Source: an uncultured Chloroflexia bacterium (GTDB lineage: Bacteria > Chloroflexota > Anaerolineae > Anaerolineales > Anaerolineaceae). Taken from it: a DNA stretch of 32,000 bases. Position numbers and translations under genes: made by a program. Positions within the stretch are counted from its first letter, which is position 1; each line of letters opens with the position of its first letter. This document shows, in pieces, positions 5,575-15,551 of this stretch. A model generated the notes under the pieces. That model was given only the letters and a program-made list of their open reading frames with translations, had not been told where the DNA came from and ran no database searches. The stretch lies in contig OY969938.1 of NCBI GenBank assembly GCA_963704755.1, forward strand, positions 540,001 to 572,000, written 5' to 3'.

Positions 5575-5603
5575 TTGTCACCATCCCGGGTTGATGCTAC
5601 ACT
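5575..5603 (+). promoter_or_regulatory. candidate sigma70-type promoter for the 5.6-11.1 kb unit
   Basis: TTGTCA (5575-5580), 17-nt spacer, TACACT (5598-5603). TTGTCA is itself duplicated (TTGTCAaaTTGTCA). Confidence 0.3.
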
Positions 5604-5624
5604 ATTTTGTAAGCGGAGGTGATT

Positions 5625-5987
5625 GTGAAAGCCGGAAAACTGATTCTGTATATCGTTGCAGGTATCCTGATCTTCTTCGGTGTCCTGTTCATCTGGGGGG
5701 CCACCGGCGATCAGGGGAATATGGCCTGGATACCGGTTGGAATCATTACGGTCGCCATCGGCCTGATTCTGATTTATTTTGCTTCGCGCAGGCCCGCCGT
5801 GCCTGACCAGACCAACGTCACTTTGAAAGTCGATTTACCTGGGAATGTCGGCATGGATGCGATAAAATGCAAGTCTTGCGGGGGTACGTTGGGGCCTGAG
5901 GACATCAAAATGGTCGCGGGGGCGCCGGTGGTGACATGTCCATATTGCCATACCACTTACCAACTTACCGAAGAACCAAAATGGTAA
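5625..5987 (+). CDS. small membrane protein with C-terminal zinc ribbon
   Basis: GTG at 5625 lies 5 nt after GGAGG (5615-5619); the track start at 5619 overlaps the SD. Two hydrophobic helices (LILYIVAGILIFFGVLFIWGA, WIPVGIITVAIGLILIYFA) precede CKSC-x19-CPYC. Confidence 0.6.
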   Translation: MKAGKLILYIVAGILIFFGVLFIWGATGDQGNMAWIPVGIITVAIGLILIYFASRRPAVPDQTNVTLKVDLPGNVGMDAIKCKSCGGTLGPEDIKMVAGAPVVTCPYCHTTYQLTEEPKW

Positions 5988-6106: not shown

Positions 6107-7801
6107 ATGCGAAAAATTTATCCGTTATGGGCCTTGCTGCTTATTCTGCTGCTGGCTCTCCAGGTTGCGCCGGCTAACGCCCAAAACCTGGATTTTCAAG
6201 TGCCTCAACAGAACATTCAGGCCATCGTCAACTCCGATGGGACCCTTTCTCTGGACTACACTATCGTTTTTGCCAATAGCGCTTCCGGCGATGTCATCGA
6301 CATTGTGGATGTTGGTATGCCGAATTACGACTACGAAATCAGCTCGATGAGCGCCGAAATCGATGGTTACGCCGCAGAGGAAATCCTCGACTCTGAATAC
6401 GTCCACCCCGGTATCGAAGTCCACCTGGGTTCGCACAGCATCCAACCTGGCCAAACGGGCACACTGCACCTGCATGTCGGTACAGTCAAGAACGTCATTG
6501 GTCAATCGACGCTGGAAGAGTCCGAGCCTTATGCCAGCCTGGTCTTCAGCCCCAATTATTTCGACAGCAGTCTCGTCTCGGGTAAAACTGATTACACTGT
6601 TTCGCTGATCCTTCCGGCCGGGATGACTGCCGAAGAGCCGCGTTATCACAACCCCAGCAGCAACTGGCCGGGGGCTGACGCCGCTACCGCTTCGTTCGAC
6701 AGCCAGGGACGGGTTGTATATACCTGGACTTCCACCGACGCGTCCAGCGGCAAGGCTTACATATTCGGCGCCAGTTTTCCGGAACGGCTGGTTCCCATAA
6801 CCTCGGTCGTCGCCACCGAAACCCCCAACAACCGTACCATCGACACCAGCGGGATCTTTGGCTGCCTGTGTGTGGTGGGAATTTTGGGCCTTTTCACCGC
6901 ATTAGGGGTGGTTTCAGCCAACGCCAATAAGAAACGCCGTTTGCAATACCTGCCTCCCAAGATTTCAGTCGAAGGACATGGCATTAAACGCGGCCTGACC
7001 GCGGTCGAAGCTGCTATTCTGATGCAGACCCCGCTCGATAAGGTCATGACCATGGTCTTGTTCTCTACCTTAAAAAAGGAAGCCGCAACGGTAGAAACGC
7101 GTGACCCGCTTAAGCTGACCATCGCCGACCCGCTGCCCGAAGGCTTACAGCCTTACGAAGTCCTGTTCTTGACCGCCTTTAAAGAAACAAACGACAAAGT
7201 CCGCAAAGAAAAACTTCAGGACATGACCATCTCCCTGGTCAAGTCGGTCCAGGAAAAGATGAAGGGCTTTAGCCGTAAGGAGACCATCGACTATTACCAG
7301 GCAATCACCGAGAAGGCCTGGACGCAGGTAACCTCTGCAGACACCCCCGAGGTCAAATCGCAAGCCTACGAGCAGGTCATGGACTGGACCATGCTGGACC
7401 ATCAATGGGAAGATCGCACACGCACCACCCTGGGATCCGGACCGGTATTTGTGCCGACCTGGTGGTGGCGTTACGATCCGGTCGTGCGTGGTACTCAATT
7501 TGGCGGTGGCGTAGCTCATACGGCCGCGCCGGCCGGGATGCCATCCGCGGGTGGGCAGATCTCTATGCCCAAGCTGCCCGGCTCTGATTTTGCCGCCTCG
7601 ATGGTCAATGGGGTGCAAACGTTCTCGGCCGGGGTTATCGGCGGTGTGACCAACTTCACCAGCAACATCACCAACCGCACCAACCCGCTCCCCAAGCCAA
7701 GCAGCAGCTCATCCGGAGGCCACTTTGGCGGCGGCGGTGGTTGTGCCTGCGCATGTGCCTGCGCCGGTTGCGCCTGTGCCTGTGCCGGTGGCGGCCGCTA
7801 A
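6107..7801 (+). CDS. DUF2207-like membrane protein with C-terminal Ser/Gly linker and Cys-Ala repeat tail
   Basis: GGAGGG SD. Signal peptide ending APANA/QN, a ~230-aa beta-rich ectodomain, a TM helix (IFGCLCVVGILGLFTALGVVSA) followed by NANKKRR, then a soluble region (GLTAVEAAILMQTPLDKVMTMVLFSTLKK). It ends SSSSSGGHFGGGGGCACACACAGCACACAGGGR. The DUF2207 assignment is from memory of that family's architecture. Confidence 0.75.
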   Translation: MRKIYPLWALLLILLLALQVAPANAQNLDFQVPQQNIQAIVNSDGTLSLDYTIVFANSASGDVIDIVDVGMPNYDYEISSMSAEIDGYAAEEILDSEYVHPGIEVHLGSHSIQPGQTGTLHLHVGTVKNVIGQSTLEESEPYASLVFSPNYFDSSLVSGKTDYTVSLILPAGMTAEEPRYHNPSSNWPGADAATASFDSQGRVVYTWTSTDASSGKAYIFGASFPERLVPITSVVATETPNNRTIDTSGIFGCLCVVGILGLFTALGVVSANANKKRRLQYLPPKISVEGHGIKRGLTAVEAAILMQTPLDKVMTMVLFSTLKKEAATVETRDPLKLTIADPLPEGLQPYEVLFLTAFKETNDKVRKEKLQDMTISLVKSVQEKMKGFSRKETIDYYQAITEKAWTQVTSADTPEVKSQAYEQVMDWTMLDHQWEDRTRTTLGSGPVFVPTWWWRYDPVVRGTQFGGGVAHTAAPAGMPSAGGQISMPKLPGSDFAASMVNGVQTFSAGVIGGVTNFTSNITNRTNPLPKPSSSSSGGHFGGGGGCACACACAGCACACAGGGR

Positions 7802-9196
7802 ATGAAAGGTCGTTTTGTGACTGTTTCACCCAGGCGATTTTTATCGAAAATCTTTCCCGCTTCACCCGAAAAAGGCGCAGGTCCGCTGCCTGCGCCTGGT
7901 TTGTTCCATTTTCTACGCCAGAACGGTCCTGAAAAAGCACGGATTCACCTGCGCCTCGACCCGGACGGTACCGGTACGCTGCTGATCAACGCCAGCCGGA
8001 TCTTTCACCTCAACCCGACGGCAGCGCACATGGCTTACCTGAATTTAAATGAAATCCCTGAAGACCAGGTGATCGATCGTTTAACCAGGACATACAAGAT
8101 CAAACGCGAACAGGCCCGGGCCGACTACCTGGCATTGTCCAGCCAGCTCGATGAGCTCGTCCGCCCGGATGGCGCCTGCCCAATCTGTGATCTCGACCTG
8201 GAAACGACTGCACCGTTTTCGGCCCGGCCCAACAGCCCCTATCGCATGGACCTGGCCCTCACTTACCGCTGTAACAACAATTGCAGCCACTGCTATAACG
8301 CCAGGTCACGCAGCTTCCCGGAGCTCGGCCTGGAACAATGGCTGGCTATCATCGACCGCTTATGGGAGATCGGTGTTCCCCATATCGTATTCACCGGCGG
8401 CGAGCCGACCCTCTCGCGCTACCTGCCCGAGCTGATCGCTCACGCTGAAAAGAACGGGCAGATCACCGGGATCAATACCAACGGCCGCCGGTTGAAAGAC
8501 CCTGATTTCGTTCAAAAGCTGGTCGATGCCGGCCTGGATCACGCTCAAATCACGCTGGAATCGCATATCCCGGCCATTCACGACCAGATGGTCGCCGCAC
8601 CCGGCGCCTGGCAGGACACCATCCAGGGGTTGAAAAACGTTTTGGCCACCCGCTTGTTCGTGATGACCAACACGACCTTGTTGCAAAATAATTCGCCTTA
8701 CCTGGCCGATACGCTCGACTTCCTGGCCGGCCATGGCGTACCCACCGTCGGACTGAATGCGCTGATCTACTCGGGCAAGGGCGCCAATGTCAACACCGGC
8801 CTGCCGGCTGCGGACCTGCCTGCCCTGTTGGAAATCGCCCGGGCCAAAACAGCCCAATCCGGGCAGCGGCTGATCTGGTACACACCTACCGAATACTGCC
8901 ACTTCGATCCTGTCCTGCTCGAGCTGGGCGTCAAGGGCTGCACCGCTGCCTTGTACAATATGTGCATCGAACCGGATGGCAGTGTTTTACCCTGCCAATC
9001 CTATTACACCCCCCTGGGGAACATGCTCGAAACACCCTGGGAGCAAATCTGGAATCATGATTTGGCCGTTTCTTTGCGCGAACGGCGTAATCTGCCTGAA
9101 AAATGTAACGCCTGTGAACTGATCAGCGAATGTGGCGGGGGTTGCCCGCTCGAACGCCAGGCCCACGCTGAAACTGTATCATCTGCTCAGGATTAA
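7802..9196 (+). CDS. radical SAM/SPASM domain enzyme with N-terminal PqqD-like (RRE) domain
   Basis: The ATG immediately follows the upstream TAA. CxxxCxxC = CNNNCSHC (Cys157/161/164), GGE motif VFTGGEPTL, SPASM motif CNACELISECGGGC (Cx2Cx5Cx3C) plus 4 further upstream Cys. The N-terminal segment GTLLINASRIFHLNPTAAHMAYLNLNEIPEDQVIDRLTRTYKIKREQARADYLALSSQLDELV is PqqD-like. Confidence 0.9.
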   Translation: MKGRFVTVSPRRFLSKIFPASPEKGAGPLPAPGLFHFLRQNGPEKARIHLRLDPDGTGTLLINASRIFHLNPTAAHMAYLNLNEIPEDQVIDRLTRTYKIKREQARADYLALSSQLDELVRPDGACPICDLDLETTAPFSARPNSPYRMDLALTYRCNNNCSHCYNARSRSFPELGLEQWLAIIDRLWEIGVPHIVFTGGEPTLSRYLPELIAHAEKNGQITGINTNGRRLKDPDFVQKLVDAGLDHAQITLESHIPAIHDQMVAAPGAWQDTIQGLKNVLATRLFVMTNTTLLQNNSPYLADTLDFLAGHGVPTVGLNALIYSGKGANVNTGLPAADLPALLEIARAKTAQSGQRLIWYTPTEYCHFDPVLLELGVKGCTAALYNMCIEPDGSVLPCQSYYTPLGNMLETPWEQIWNHDLAVSLRERRNLPEKCNACELISECGGGCPLERQAHAETVSSAQD

Positions 9197-9223: not shown

Positions 9224-10396
9224 ATGTTGGATAATCTTCGCAAACAATACAACCGGCTATTCAAACCGGCCCAACCGCTTCCATCCGGCATATACCATTA
9301 TCAGGCTCCACCTGATGCGCCTTTGCCATATCGCCTGCACCTGCGGGTCGATCCCAACAACGAAGGCATCCTGGTCGTCAACGCATCCACCGTGCTGCAT
9401 ATGAATGCCACTGCCTGCGAATATGCATATCATCTGATCAAAGGCAGCAGCGAAAAAGAGATCATACAAGATATTTCTTCGCGCTACCAAATTGACAAGC
9501 ATCAGGTTACGAAAGACTTTAAGATTTTCGAGGAACGCATCCGTTCTTTGATCGAATCGCCTGATCTGGACCCGGTCACTTTTCTGGATTTCGACCGGGA
9601 CGAAATTTATTCGGCCAACCTGAGCGCTCCCTTACGCCTGGACTGCGCGCTGACCTACCAGACTGTCGAAGACAAACCCGGAGAAAACACGCCGGTCGAG
9701 CGGGTGGACCATGAGTTGGTCACCGCCGAATGGATCCGTATCCTGGATAAGGCCTGGGAAGTGGGCATACCCCAGGCGGTGTTTACCGGCGGTGAACCCA
9801 CCTTGCGGCCGGATCTGGTGGACCTGGTCCAGCACACCGAGGACCTGGGTATGGTCGTCGGCATCCTCAGCGATGGACTGCGTTTTACCGATAACGAATT
9901 CCGCCACAGAATCCTGGCCGCCGGTTTGGACCACTTGATGCTGGTCCTGGACCCGGATAACGACCATTCCTGGGAAGCTTTGCGAGATACCCTGGCCGAG
10001 GACCTCTTCATCACCGTCCACCTGACCATTACTCCTGAGAACCAGGCGGATATACGCGGATTGATCTACAAACTCGCGGATATGGGCGTCAAATCCATCA
10101 GCCTGAGCGAGAGTGATCCCAGCCTGACGGCCACGTTGAATCAGGCCCGCGATCTGGCCGCTTTCCTGCAGGTCAGCCTGGTTTGGGATCTGCCGGTGCC
10201 CTATTCGCAGGCCAACCCGGTCAGCCTGGAATACGAAAAGATCGAAGATATCCCCCAGGGAGCCGGCAAAGCCTGGCTATACGTCGAGCCAGACGGAGAC
10301 GTTCTGCCGACCCAGGGTGTAACCACCGTGCTCGGCAATATGCTCACTGGTTCCTGGGATGCCATCTGGCAAAAGGCGCAAGAAACGGCCGCATGA
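9224..10396 (+). CDS. cluster-less paralog of the radical SAM/SPASM enzyme (pseudo-rSAM) with PqqD-like N-terminal domain
   Basis: GGAGG SD at 9214-9218. Alignable end to end with the 7802 gene: LHLRVDPNNEGILVVNAS vs IHLRLDPDGTGTLLINAS, VFTGGEPTL in both, and YVEPDGDVLPTQGVTTVLGNML vs CIEPDGSVLPCQSYYTPLGNML. CxxxCxxC is replaced by QTVEDKPGE, no SPASM cysteines remain, and the whole protein has only 2 Cys. Confidence 0.8.
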   Translation: MLDNLRKQYNRLFKPAQPLPSGIYHYQAPPDAPLPYRLHLRVDPNNEGILVVNASTVLHMNATACEYAYHLIKGSSEKEIIQDISSRYQIDKHQVTKDFKIFEERIRSLIESPDLDPVTFLDFDRDEIYSANLSAPLRLDCALTYQTVEDKPGENTPVERVDHELVTAEWIRILDKAWEVGIPQAVFTGGEPTLRPDLVDLVQHTEDLGMVVGILSDGLRFTDNEFRHRILAAGLDHLMLVLDPDNDHSWEALRDTLAEDLFITVHLTITPENQADIRGLIYKLADMGVKSISLSESDPSLTATLNQARDLAAFLQVSLVWDLPVPYSQANPVSLEYEKIEDIPQGAGKAWLYVEPDGDVLPTQGVTTVLGNMLTGSWDAIWQKAQETAA

Positions 10397-11136
10397 ACGC
10401 CCGCGAATGGGCAGATCGCTTCGAACAGCAGGCCGGTTGGACGCGCGCCATGCGCCAATATCTGCTGCAAACCTTGCAACTGCCCGAAAGCCCGCGTATC
10501 CTCGAGGTTGGCTGCGGAACCGCGGCCGTGTTGAAAGAATTCGACCCGAAAAATACCCGGGCCTGGGGACTGGACCTGCGGCTGGATTACCTGCACCTGG
10601 CTCGCAAGATATTCCCGCAAGCATCTTATACCTGCGGTGACGTCGCCTATCTGCCCTATCGAAAGTCCGGCTTCGACCTGTGCTATTGCCATTATTTCTT
10701 GATGTGGGTCGATGCAACCCAAGCGTTGGCCGAGATGGGCCGGGTGACCCGCCCGGGCGGCGCCGTGCTGGCCCTGGCCGAGCCGGATTATGGTGGGCGT
10801 ATCGATACCCCCGCCGAACTGGCTGTGTTGGGCCAACAGCAAACCCTGGCGTTAGCCCGCCAGGGCGCCGATCCATCCAGCGGGCGCAAACTGGCTGCTC
10901 TTTTCCACCAGGCCGGCCTGGCGGACATTCAGGTGGGTGTCATTGGAGCCAACTGGTCCATGACCGGCCGGGCGGCTGAATCGGTGCTGGAATGGAGCGT
11001 CCTCCGGGCCGATCTGCAGGGCACATTTTCCCCTGCCGACCTGGATCGCCTGGAAGCCATCGACCGCCAGGCCTGGGCTGCCGGTGAGCGCATCCTCTAC
11101 GTGCCCACGTTTTACGCCGTCGGGCGCGTAAACTGA
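10393..11136 (+). CDS. class I SAM-dependent methyltransferase
   Basis: The ATG at 10393 overlaps the upstream stop (ATGA). Motif I RILEVGCGTAAV, acidic loop GLDL, and GDVAYLPYRKSGFDLCYC. The track ORF start at 10183 is a spurious extension. Confidence 0.8.
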   Translation: MNAREWADRFEQQAGWTRAMRQYLLQTLQLPESPRILEVGCGTAAVLKEFDPKNTRAWGLDLRLDYLHLARKIFPQASYTCGDVAYLPYRKSGFDLCYCHYFLMWVDATQALAEMGRVTRPGGAVLALAEPDYGGRIDTPAELAVLGQQQTLALARQGADPSSGRKLAALFHQAGLADIQVGVIGANWSMTGRAAESVLEWSVLRADLQGTFSPADLDRLEAIDRQAWAAGERILYVPTFYAVGRVN

Positions 11137-11160: not shown

Positions 11161-11189
11161 TTGCCAAAAGCAGGGATGTGGAATATAAT
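11161..11189 (+). promoter_or_regulatory. sigma70-type promoter for tRNA-Pro
   Basis: TTGCCA (11161-11166), 17-nt spacer, TATAAT (11184-11189), ending 13 nt before the mature tRNA 5' end. Confidence 0.55.
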
Positions 11190-11202
11190 ACCCAACGTTG
11201 TT

Positions 11203-11279
<77 letters not shown>

Positions 11280-11295
11280 AAGAAAATAACGAGAT

Positions 11296-11342
11296 TACAT
11301 AGAAGGACCTCTGCCCAAAAGGGCAGAGGTCCTTCTATGTAA
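11296..11342 (+). terminator. long perfect hairpin after tRNA-Pro (about 21-bp stem, AAAA loop)
   Basis: TTACATAGAAGGACCTCTGCCC-aaaa-GGGCAGAGGTCCTTCTATGTAA. No U-tract follows. Confidence 0.55.
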
Positions 11343-13196: not shown

Positions 13197-15551
13197 TTAA
13201 TCGAGTGCGTCTTCCACAGCAACTTTCAACTGATGCAGGCGCTTTTCGCGATCATTGACAAAACGTTTTAATCCTTCTAAAACCCATTCGGGGGATAAAT
13301 GCGCTTCATCCAAAACATCATCCAAACGGCCGCCCGTGCGCCAGCGGTCATCCCAATCAGAAGAGAGCGCATAATCCTCTCCGGTTTTTGTGTATAACCA
13401 ATCGTGCATCAACCAGCGTGCTTGAGTAGTGATCACCGTTGAATCCAATTCGTCGGCTGGTGAAATGACGTGACGACGATAGCCGGCGGATTGCAAAGCA
13501 AAAAGTTGTGGGCTGGTTGCGCAAACAATCTTGACGTTGAGCTGTAATTCATCCAACCTTGGCAACAGGGCCACGACCGAATTCATCGCACTCGTTCCCT
13601 GGACGATGACGGTGCCTCCGCGCGGTTGGCCCTCGCGATAATCACGGACGACGTATGCCCCTCGAGCAGCTTCAAAATGGGAAGGCATGCCCAACTTTAC
13701 CCGATCAGGTATCTCAATGGGTGGCCGCGTAAGGTGCAGAGCAATGATAGGCACATCCTGTTTGAGGGCTGCCCCCAGGAGCACGGGCACTTCATTGTGT
13801 TCCCAGGGATATAGATTGATGATCGAACCCCGCGGAAAGAGCTGTGTCACCCCGGGCGAAAAGACACCAAAGTGCGTGCGGCTGTCATCCGCCGTCTCGG
13901 GACCAGAATGTCCGGCAACCCAAATGACTTTGCCTAATTTCAACTGGCAATCCTGGCTCAACTGACTGAAAAGCCGGAACATACCATACTTGAGATAAGA
14001 AAAAGAGCCATAGGTGGAACAGGCTCCCCAAAAGCCATCGAATTCTTCTTCTGGATGAACCGAAAAGTTAACCGTCGCCAGGCCTGCCATGATTCCGGAA
14101 TTGGCGAATTCGGTAATTTCTTGAGGCAAAATCACGCCTTCGTGCTTGCCGAAACGTTCATACCACCCATAACCGGCAAAGTCATCAAAGCCGGCGCCGA
14201 AACCGCTAAGATTTGTCGAATTCGGCCAGGTCGGCAGAGGCCACCAAAAAGAGTGGGCGGTCATACTCTTTTGCGCCGAATGCATTTACCCAGGCTCCCC
14301 ATTTTGCCAGACCTGCCCGATTAGGTGCTTTTTCACCCGGCCTGGCGTAAAGTTGTTCAGGATAATGCTCAAAATCATATAAACGGGCATCTTGAAAGGG
14401 ATTTCCCTGCTTACCCAACTCGAACCCAGGTAACGCGGCTGGCACCTGATTGCCAATTTCAACCAGTGTATCTGCCAGAAAGTCGACGAGTGTCTGGTCT
14501 TTTCGTAATACTTCGATAACCGCGTTAAGGTTGGCCAGATATTCAGACTTCAAAGAAGTTTCATCTTTAGGGGTTTCGCCGCCAAAATTCACAAAACTGG
14601 CCCCATACTTATCGGCAAATTCTCGTTTTGTTTGCCAGAAAAGATCACTGTTCATTTTATGAGGTGCGCCGTGCGAGGCGTAATCGTACTTCAAATAACC
14701 ACGCCCTTTGCGTGTCTTCACCCAGACCGCATTGGGACGATGCTGCGGATTTTCCAAATGAACTGCCTTCAACAAAACCGTCGAGACACTGGCCCAATCA
14801 CTGCCATTTTCTGTACCGGTAACATTCCAGCCGTGAGCACCAAACCAGTCCTCCGGCGTACCATAGACCACCGAACTGACCGGATGACTGTCGATGCCAA
14901 AATCATTCCAATCGCAAACGAAATACAGGTTATCCAGCGCCAGGCCGTAAGCCGAGTTTAAGACTCGTGTACGCCCCCGGGTGTCATTCCTCCTTCGCCG
15001 TCGAAAGCGAAAACATTCACCTGGCCTGCTCCTGCCCGTTTGAGCGCCAGCGCTTCCCCCACAGCAGCCGGAGCGCCGTGGCCGGATGGACCGGTATTGA
15101 ACTTGAGGAATAACGTCTTTCCTTCCATCTCAGCGTGCCCGGAAAGGCCGCCGCGTTCGCGAAAGTTTACCAGATCCTCCCAATACAAGATGTGCTCTCG
15201 CGGCATACTGCTGGCATATTTCGGATCGCCCGTTTGCTCATATTTCAAGCGCATCGATTCATTTAATATCGCCAGGGTACAGTAAATAAGAGGCACAGTG
15301 TGCCCGCCGATCATAATGAAACGATCGCCAAAGCGCTTCTCTGGATCGCGGATATCCCACCGCATTACTCCCCCGAGCAGCGTGACCAAAAAGGCATGTA
15401 CTTTCGAACGTGATCCACCTGGGTGTCCGCTCTGCCGATAATTCAAGATGATGTCAATTAATTGGTCGATGATATCTTTTGTTTTCTCGAAATAGGTAAA
15501 ATTCGCCTCGCATGCTTCCAGGTTTTTTGGGTTAACCATCTTCGTGTCCAT
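13197..15551 (-). pseudogene. transketolase-family (ThDP-dependent) gene interrupted by two compensating frameshifts
   Basis: Three ORF fragments (15551-14958, 14871-14206, 14285-13197). Motifs are GHPGGS and the ThDP motif FDGEGGMTPGGVHES|(L)NSAYGLALDNLYFVCDWNDFGID, split at about 14958. The Pyr-domain motif ASADLAE|STNLSGFG is split at about 14215. Total span is 2355 nt = 785 codons, and the first and third fragments share a frame. AAGGAG SD lies 9 nt before the ATG at 15551. Confidence 0.75.

Follow-up and report, generated by a model that had tools for sequence, protein, structure and literature searches.

Radical S-adenosylmethionine (SAM) enzymes that carry a SPASM domain and depend on a recognition element (RRE) for peptides that are made by the ribosome and modified after translation (RiPPs) are known for producing small, secreted natural products of peptide type. 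Radical-SAM/SPASM enzymes may also act on a cysteine of a protein that stays a functional protein, as QhpD does on QhpC and anSME on sulfatases. Here, a stretch of 32,000 nucleotides from an uncultured Chloroflexia bacterium (contig OY969938.1, positions 540,001 to 572,000, hereafter the window) was analysed, in which a membrane protein ending in a Cys-Ala repeat, the tail protein, is encoded directly before an RRE-bearing radical-SAM/SPASM enzyme, the maturase. The membrane protein with its near-invariant tail was found in anaerobic bacteria by the hundreds and in several Asgard archaea, and the near-constant pairing of the tail with a peptide-modifying radical-SAM gene points to an undescribed protein-modification system. 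At a probability of roughly 0.7, the tail would be the substrate of the adjacent maturase, which would modify the cysteines of a RiPP-like core built into a large membrane protein.

The tail protein is a 564-residue open reading frame (ORF, 6107..7801, plus strand) with the C-terminal end ...GGGGG-CACACACA-G-CACACA-GGGR, or ...KPSSSSSGGHFGGGGG-CACACACA-G-CACACA-GGGR with the preceding residues and ...KPSSSSSGGHFGGGGGCACACACAGCACACAGGGR* when read continuously. A first-pass annotation of the same DNA had picked out the Cys-Ala block at 7742-7786, with 7 Cys in 15 positions, and this matches the ORF translation exactly; the string quoted there as the last 34 residues has 33, and the alternation of Cys and Ala, described as strict, holds apart from one break at the hinge Gly. 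On the DNA level, Tandem Repeats Finder called two repeats, one imperfect with a period of 6 (TGTGCC, 7.7 copies, 71% matches) at 7742-7790, the other with a period of 21 at 7748-7793.

In a word-indexed search the last 17-19 residues were identical in about 117 of the 120 best homologs, which had 50-100% overall identity. Since a word index may favour proteins sharing tail words, residues 1-520 only were then compared exhaustively, using no such index, with 1.84 billion cluster representatives. This tail-blind search matched 771 representatives (50%-identity clusters), and among the best 150 of these (28-52% identity) the tail was present in 107, being canonical in 73 and a close variant in 34. 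The variants were (CA)3-G-(CA)4, hinges of AS, DS or VS, a single (CA)5 or (CA)3 block and a GGGGGR end. Almost all of the 43 tail-less representatives were truncated or frameshifted fragments, and the absence from orthologs that the first-pass annotation had envisaged was not found, the tail being present in essentially all of them. In metagenome gene calls the gene is commonly frameshifted or mis-called, so that the family seems tail-less in places; P0171, P0158, P0163, P0238 and others end in strings like ...CLCLCRLRLCLRRWR, which is the tail DNA in the wrong frame.

The final CACACAGGGR was identical in 105 of the 107 tail-bearing representatives from the tail-blind set, and the invariant unit is (CA)3-GGGR-COOH, preceded by a first block of 2-5 CA units across lineages. 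The Cys are invariant, and the Ala positions beside the hinge may be V, D, N or H. All DNA tails compared were distinct (122 of 122), every synonymous codon was in use at each position and the third-position difference was 0.59. As the DNA tails all differ while the peptide stays constant, selection acts on the peptide and not on the DNA. Slippage in the TGY-GCN repeat, giving a functionless and strain-specific product, would fit the imperfect hexanucleotide repeat and the varying number of CA units in the first block, but it is refuted by these unique DNA tails with scrambled codons, which encode a near-invariant peptide across phyla and domains in homologs only 28-66% identical overall, and its probability is practically negligible. 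The tail is also exclusive to one protein family, as 111 of 113 tail ORFs were still homologous to the window protein after the tail had been stripped.

With a back-translated DNA pattern of the tail alone, the tail was found in at least 120 species genomes, mostly of Anaerolineae, including the cultured carriers Ornatilinea apprima, Leptolinea sp. HRD-7, Bellilinea caldifistulae and Thermanaerothrix. The tail-protein family comprises more than 4600 90%-identity clusters in the word-indexed search, nearly all of about 560 residues and from Anaerolineae. The same tail occurred in five independent Asgard metagenome-assembled genomes (MAGs; Heimdall-, Hod- and Promethearchaeota), in Ca. Sabulitectum/Hyd24-12, Fermentibacterota, Zixibacteria and a complete Coatesbacteria chromosome, and further in Acidobacteriota/Aminicenantes, Planctomycetota and Edwardsbacteria.

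The cassette in the window (Table 1) consists of genes for a small zinc-ribbon protein, the tail protein, the maturase, a pseudo-radical-SAM paralog and a methyltransferase, all on the same strand, and a tRNA-Pro gene ends the unit. The public names of the five proteins are absent or generic. A promoter-like site, for which the evidence is weak, lies at 5575-5603 before the zinc-ribbon gene, whose product has two hydrophobic segments and weak zinc-ribbon Pfam matches. The TAA of the tail gene is directly followed by the maturase ATG (7802), GGAGG precedes the ATG of the paralog, and the TGA of the paralog overlaps the ATG of the methyltransferase (ATGA); the TAA-ATG and ATGA junctions argue for an operon with translational coupling. 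Among 109 loci that were found through the tail alone and had enough downstream DNA, a gene of the radical-SAM family was immediately downstream of the tail gene in 100. Inversely, the best 80 matches of a metagenome scan with the maturase profile (57-70% identity to the maturase) were used as a reverse test, and the tail gene was upstream on the same strand in 63 of the 65 maturase-anchored loci. The linkage survives rearrangement, for example in loci L053 and L077. A zinc-ribbon homolog was upstream of the tail gene in 77 of 83 loci, and downstream of it the paralog was present in 54 of 67 and the methyltransferase in 46 of 67, the latter including Asgard, Zixibacteria and Coatesbacteria loci. 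ORF clustering across the tail loci gave only four gene families conserved around the tail gene, and no protease, transporter or small-molecule pathway genes were among them. In the cassettes of Asgard archaea and other non-Chloroflexi the gene order is zinc-ribbon protein (Promethearchaeota included), tail protein, maturase and methyltransferase, without the paralog. The role of radical-SAM substrate, one of those suggested in the first-pass annotation, is strongly supported by the maturase gene adjoining the tail stop and by this linkage across phyla; what had been underestimated is that the cassette is conserved across domains and also encodes a zinc-ribbon membrane protein, a methyltransferase and a partner of the pseudo-radical-SAM type.

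Table 1. The Cys-Ala tail cassette and its parts in the window. Positions are those of the window; amino acids (aa) are numbered within each protein. AF2, AlphaFold2; pLDDT, predicted local distance difference test score; KD19, hydropathy score.
Feature	Position	Strand	Basis and remarks
Small membrane protein, two transmembrane segments, cytoplasmic C4 zinc ribbon (CxxC...CxxC)	5619..5987	+	First cassette gene; start uncertain by ~2 codons
Tail protein, bitopic membrane protein, 564 aa	6107..7801	+	GGAGG Shine-Dalgarno sequence upstream
Predicted signal peptide, aa 1-26 (...APANA/Q)	6107..6184	+	Hydropathy; conserved AQ.Y.F.V motif after it
Predicted extracytoplasmic beta-sandwich domain, aa 30-225	6194..6781	+	AF2 pLDDT mostly >90
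Single transmembrane helix, aa ~250-272	6854..6922	+	KD19 = 2.47; AF2 helix 247-281; then N-KKRR (KKRR aa 275-278)
Conserved cytoplasmic alpha/beta domain, aa 281-463	6947..7495	+	Conservation maps; AF2 pLDDT 83-92
Leader-like segment, aa 488-529	7568..7693	+	LPG..FAAS.V.G.Q.F...V.G....FT..VT..TNP.P
Flexible Gly/Ser/Arg-rich spacer, aa 530-545	7694..7741	+	Sequence and length vary freely among homologs; disordered in AF2
Core (CA)4-G-(CA)3, 7 Cys + 7 Ala, aa 546-560	7742..7786	+	Codons 546-560, 15 positions
Invariant C-terminal GGGR and TAA stop	7787..7801	+	GGGR 7787-7798, stop 7799-7801; abuts the ATG of the next gene
Maturase, 464 aa, PqqD(RRE)-radical SAM-SPASM	7802..9196	+	Pfam domains all above cut-offs
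PqqD-like RRE of the maturase, aa 56-118	7967-8155	+	Pfam PqqD 1.1e-5, 26.1 bits vs cut-off 23.4
Radical-SAM core motif, C157x3C161x2C164	8270-8293	+	Pfam Radical_SAM 7.6e-24
SPASM: C366, C380-x12-G393-x4-C398, C435x2C438x5C444x3C448	8897-9145	+	Pfam SPASM 1.1e-10
Pseudo-radical-SAM paralog, 390 aa	9224..10396	+	PqqD-like N-terminus, TIM-barrel core, GGE motif kept; 2 Cys in total
Class I SAM-dependent methyltransferase	10393..11136	+	Methyltransf_11 6.1e-16
tRNA-Pro(GGG)	11203-11278	+	Directly after the cassette

The maturase is conserved in its cofactor motifs. Its CX3CX2C motif was present in 82 of 82 orthologs and the SPASM motif CX2CX5CX3C in 81 of 82, and ten Cys (C157, C161, C164, C366, C380, C398, C435, C438, C444 and C448) are invariant from Asgard archaea to Chloroflexi, a set predicted to suffice for two auxiliary clusters besides the SAM cluster. 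Among solved proteins, the family profile was closest to the sactisynthase SkfB (2.4e-30), followed by PqqE, BlsE and SuiB; next in the ranking of the PDB came GDGT-MAS and MoaA, which are radical-SAM enzymes with non-peptide substrates, and then CteB, and anSME matched over the SPASM region only (6e-10). Profile positions 34-101 matched the lasso-peptide RRE TfuB1. Among the curated NCBIfam equivalogs no model reached its cut-off, the best being NirJ2 with 122 bits against 500, followed at a distance from their thresholds by PqqE TIGR02109 (104.7/381), SkfB TIGR04403 (71.8/300) and SbtM TIGR04082 (62.5/350); StsB NF045574, MftC TIGR03962, ScmE, GeoRSP, HxsC and others were likewise below cut-off. 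The maturases of archaea and other non-Chloroflexi carry an extra conserved Cys after CX2CX5CX3C (...C[PR][DE]S...N), beyond the position of aa 448 in the window enzyme, which the Chloroflexi enzymes lack. The lineage that also gained the pseudo-radical-SAM paralog may thus ligate its second auxiliary cluster in another way.

This paralog lacks both CX3CX2C and the SPASM Cys; either motif was found in 0 of 58 orthologs, the median being 2 Cys, and it is predicted to be a conserved cluster-less pseudo-enzyme. It occurs only in Chloroflexi-type cassettes. A pseudo-SAM/SPASM protein of the family TIGR04347 likewise has a radical-SAM fold that has lost its cluster Cys and is encoded beside an intact paralog. 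The present paralog differs in reaching only 43.8 bits against a cut-off of 525 with that model, in the loss of every SPASM Cys, in the retained PqqD-like N-terminus and in its restriction to Chloroflexi cassettes. For the methyltransferase, a TTG start at 10183 was dropped for the ATG at 10393, which overlaps the upstream stop codon. Its best match in the PDB was LahSB (2.5e-9), over the SAM-binding core only. LahSB is a RiPP methyltransferase that acts on the C-terminal carboxylate of lanthipeptide precursors, and the likeness is taken as a lead, not as evidence, for a possible capping of the invariant GGGR-COOH.

The tail protein itself is predicted to be oriented with its N-terminus outside and its C-terminus inside the cell. 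A cleavable signal peptide and one transmembrane helix followed by KKRR place the tail in the cytoplasm by the positive-inside rule, where radical-SAM enzymes work; both the single helix with KKRR and the cytoplasmic tail had been proposed in the first-pass annotation, and simple hydropathy and positive-inside analysis gave the same side. The AF2 model (mean pLDDT of 77.5) and the hydropathy profile were in accord on this layout; the model was confident for an alpha/beta fold at aa 299-463, less so for two helices at aa 492-525, and showed disorder from aa 529 on, the tail consisting of small residues throughout. In the conservation maps the cytoplasmic half was strongly conserved, with the motifs YLPPKI..EG.GIKRGLTAVEAAILME, KMKGFSRKET, EWTMLD and P.WW..Y.P. 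Between this domain and the core, the leader-like segment has near-invariant or invariant columns at P488, P491, G492, F495, A496, S498, F517, T518, T525, N526, P527 and P529, and its motif is kept even in the Asgard copies, with 15-20 variable residues between motif and core. From this pattern we infer that aa 488-529 may be the recognition sequence of the RRE. A palmitoylation-like membrane anchor, the third role suggested at first, would agree with several cytoplasmic Cys in a moderately hydrophobic tail (KD19 = 1.48). Such S-acylation is nevertheless very improbable, with no acyltransferase among the conserved neighbours of the tail loci and neither a supporting gene nor a precedent in the cassette; the protein already has a transmembrane anchor, the linked RRE-radical-SAM-SPASM enzyme would be left unexplained, and to our knowledge these lineages have no established machinery for protein S-palmitoylation.

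The label DUF2207-like, given to the tail protein in the first-pass annotation, could not be upheld. The window protein matched no Pfam family even at E<=5 and no NCBIfam model, DUF2207_C was touched marginally by 3 of 55 family members (best E=0.018), and two members named DUF2207 or BatD in UniRef (P0016 and P0076) had no Pfam match at E<=1. With no family member reaching the gathering threshold of DUF2207 (PF09972) or DUF2207_C (PF20990), the notion that the Cys-Ala tail stands in place of a usual poly-Gly tail falls with the membership. DUF2207 and BatD proteins share with the tail protein a signal peptide, an extracytoplasmic beta-rich N-domain, a transmembrane helix, a cytoplasmic part and a Gly-rich low-complexity C-terminus, but such a broadly similar layout defines no family, the number of hydrophobic segments varies (one transmembrane helix in the window protein, extra segments in some archaeal copies), and the cytoplasmic domain and the tail are specific to the tail-protein family. 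DUF2207-like is thus at most a loose resemblance of layout. Foldseek with the full-length model gave generic beta-sandwich matches to M1 aminopeptidase N-domains and ribophorin I with TM-scores of about 0.25, and no functional lead. The model also aligned over about 460 columns with a chain of about 560-580 residues in the human OST-A complex (8b6l_O, 8pn9_E), which is not named in the search output and which we take to be ribophorin I; at a TM-score of about 0.26 this likeness in layout may be coincidental. Longer members of about 765-840 residues (P0122, P0124, P0126, P0129, P0132 and P0089, and the one at locus L111) have an extra N-terminal region of about 220 residues and the same tail; they show two matched stretches, apparently through a second extracytoplasmic domain.

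In the mechanism proposed for the tail as substrate of the maturase, the last approximately 75 residues would resemble a RiPP precursor, with the leader-like segment, the Gly/Ser spacer and the cytoplasmic core (CA)n-G-(CA)3-GGGR-COOH. The co-translated maturase would bind the leader-like segment through its RRE, in Chloroflexi probably helped by the pseudo-radical-SAM paralog as a substrate-holding partner, and the disordered core would thread into the active site. A Cys thiolate would then engage an auxiliary [4Fe-4S] cluster, the 5'-deoxyadenosyl radical would abstract a hydrogen, and the reaction would be repeated along the repeat; the binding of substrate Cys by auxiliary clusters of SPASM domains has a precedent (PMC9204691). 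The most likely product would be intramolecular thioether bridges from Cys sulfur to an Ala carbon, of the sactionine or ranthionine type. About half of the confidence in the enzyme-substrate pair extends to this thioether chemistry, which is favoured because of the maturase architecture and its best structural relative, SkfB; besides Gly, Ala is the only acceptor available, the core has as many Ala as Cys, and around the hinge Gly an Ala lies opposite each Cys. The methyltransferase may then cap the product, for which the invariant free C-terminal carboxylate and a thiol are possible sites. As nothing in the cassette suggests cleavage or export, the modified tail would remain a lasting part of the protein, tethered on the cytoplasmic side of the membrane. 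Tail anatomy, its conservation, peptide-level selection, gene linkage in both directions and the cofactor motifs and RRE of the maturase are shown by the data; the parts played by pseudo-enzyme and methyltransferase, like the biological purpose, are proposed.

The same enzyme and substrate could also be joined in a different chemistry, in which abstraction of a Cys beta-hydrogen, as by SbtM or anSME, would give a thio-oxazole-type heterocycle for each X-Cys, or a thioaldehyde or formylglycine-type product, and hence a row of groups active towards soft metals or in redox reactions. If one Ala carbonyl and one Cys were consumed per modification, the strict period of two would follow, and a reaction that consumes dipeptides would explain both the repeat and the tolerance of single-block variants. 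Also in its favour, Cys are invariant while Ala positions near the hinge tolerate other residues. SbtM, which is among the NCBIfam matches of the maturase, is a radical-SAM/SPASM enzyme that works on a Gly-Cys motif by beta-hydrogen abstraction and for which Cys binding by an auxiliary cluster has been proposed (PMC9204691). The SbtM model, however, covered the radical-SAM core only, far below its cut-off, and both the fused RRE and the best structural relative point to thioether synthases. As for anSME, it is without an RRE, and the tail does not contain the C-x-[PA]-x-R motif of its substrates. We regard this chemistry as the main alternative to thioethers, at a low probability.

Several observations weigh against modification of the tail by the maturase or narrow its form. 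The top NCBIfam scores of the maturase belong to radical-SAM/SPASM enzymes that modify tetrapyrroles (NirJ2, AhbC/D) and to PqqE, not to thioether synthases, all of them far below the cut-offs. When the substrate C-terminus was fused to the maturase and co-folded with AF2, no confident docking was obtained and tail and linker had a pLDDT below 50, so that the model does not inform on docking. In 9 of the 109 loci no radical-SAM gene was adjacent to the tail gene. The predicted topology is based on hydropathy and the positive-inside rule. The cross-phylum taxonomy comes mainly from MAG record labels, of which single assignments may be wrong; the number of non-Chloroflexi cassettes and their 41-46% identity to the window argue against wholesale mis-binning. 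Finally, an obligatory two-strand hairpin ladder is ruled out by tails with a single block (CACACACACAGGGR, CACACAGGGR).

The tetrapyrrole-like scores and the missing docking would both fit a tail that is left unmodified and serves as a cytoplasmic metal or Fe-S site or as a thiol redox buffer, the radical-SAM genes acting on a small molecule or elsewhere on the protein. The CxC spacing of the seven Cys is reminiscent of metallothionein-like sites, in line with the metal or Fe-S role put forward in the first-pass annotation. Such binding leaves unexplained, however, why Ala, the hinge Gly and GGGR should be invariant across bacteria and archaea, and why the linked enzyme bears a peptide-recognition RRE that is above the Pfam cut-off and also matches TfuB1. 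The linkage is moreover two-way and translationally coupled, and small-molecule pathway genes were not conserved near the tail loci. An unmodified tail is on these grounds improbable, and modification by the maturase is preferred.

The cassette varies in several ways. In L005, L024, L021, L038, L105 and L107, from unclassified bacteria, Planctomycetota, Coatesbacteria and Edwardsbacteria, the genes after the tail gene are unrelated or convergent, and in such minority genomes the maturase must be elsewhere or absent. Tandem duplicates of the tail-protein gene, with a slightly different spacer and (CA)n each, precede a single maturase in L074 and L087, where one maturase may serve more than one substrate. 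In 15 Chloroflexi loci the gap between maturase and paralog is larger because it contains a family of 132-residue ORFs whose PAS_4 match is borderline (22.3 bits, cut-off 23.1), as in L092 at about +1326..+1724 nucleotides after the tail stop; the window does not have it. Beyond the cassette, the best promoter-like site of the region (TTGCCA-17-TATAAT, 11 of 12 matches) precedes the tRNA-Pro gene, within 11161-11278, and a perfect 20-bp hairpin lies on the minus strand at 11295-11342. A 361-residue ORF at 13197-14285 on the minus strand had no Pfam match at E<=1e-5; its neighbours encode branched-chain amino-acid ATP-binding cassette transporter components, a xanthine-dehydrogenase-type molybdoenzyme, an HMGL-like enzyme and an alcohol dehydrogenase.

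In this locus, a machinery otherwise associated with released peptides is apparently reserved for the C-terminal end of a large membrane protein, with a core of 17-19 residues that has stayed frozen in bacteria and archaea alike. Such a substrate would escape genome-mining pipelines designed to find short precursor ORFs. If the tail is modified, it would represent a new substrate class and probably a new Cys-Ala chemistry, and it would give the first function-related handle on a family that comprises hundreds of 50%-identity clusters and is present in nearly all Anaerolineae, a group abundant in digesters, sediments and wetlands. The system is directly testable, as a substrate fragment of about 90 residues and one to three enzymes can be co-expressed, and the occurrence in Asgard archaea adds an evolutionary angle. 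Only tentatively, and with odds clearly against all its parts holding together, the tail can be pictured as a new kind of protein-borne sulfur structure, built by radical-SAM chemistry, either a Cys-Ala thioether ladder, which could in effect be a set of radical-made lanthionine- or sactionine-type bridges, or a thio-oxazole-type chain. Such a structure would be held at the membrane as a redox or metal centre or as a signalling module, in a system that is ancient or has been widely transferred among anaerobes from Chloroflexi to Asgard archaea.

No description of the system was found in Pfam, NCBIfam, PADLOC, the PDB or the searchable literature. PADLOC gave no defence-system match, only generic radical-SAM (pVip) and methyltransferase similarity and no matches for the tail and zinc-ribbon proteins, and one paper on Anaerolineae lists only the generic antiSMASH classes 'RRE-containing' and 'ranthipeptide'. 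Among described systems, the thio(seleno)oxazole pair SbtM/SbtA shares a radical-SAM/SPASM enzyme that modifies a Cys after a small residue and consumes a dipeptide unit, with an auxiliary cluster proposed to bind Cys (PMC9204691). It differs in domain layout, the sequence similarity is weak, and SbtA is a short Sec-containing peptide. With quinohemoprotein amine dehydrogenase maturation by QhpD and with anSME the cassette would share that the modified protein keeps its modification and is not released as a peptide product. Their substrates are, in contrast, soluble, exported enzymes or subunits with defined catalytic roles. QhpC has cross-links from Cys to Asp or Glu, whereas the tail core has no acidic residues; anSME, besides lacking an RRE and matching the maturase profile over SPASM alone, modifies C/S-x-P/A-x-R, and no Cys in ...CACACACAGCACACAGGGR has P/A at +2 together with R at +4.

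The closest likeness is to the sacti- and ranthipeptide systems (SkfB/SkfA, AlbA/SboA and CteB/SCIFF), which also have a single-chain enzyme with N-terminal RRE, radical-SAM and SPASM/twitch domains, a Cys-rich core, an adjacent substrate gene and the logic of leader-like motif, spacer and core. Here CX3CX2C, the SPASM Cys, a PqqD-like RRE and an adjacent, co-inherited Cys-containing candidate substrate were all found, and SkfB is the best solved relative. A short stand-alone precursor with a released or exported core was not found in the cassette; in place of an exported peptide of 30-60 residues, the candidate substrate is the C-terminus of a 564-residue membrane protein, with a strict Cys-Ala repeat and an invariant GGGR end. 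The cassette differs further in having no protease or transporter, in its conserved pseudo-radical-SAM paralog and methyltransferase, and in a maturase that reaches the cut-off of no NCBIfam model for sacti- or ranthipeptide maturases. It is best described as a previously undescribed variant of RRE-dependent radical-SAM maturation that would act on the tail of a membrane protein.

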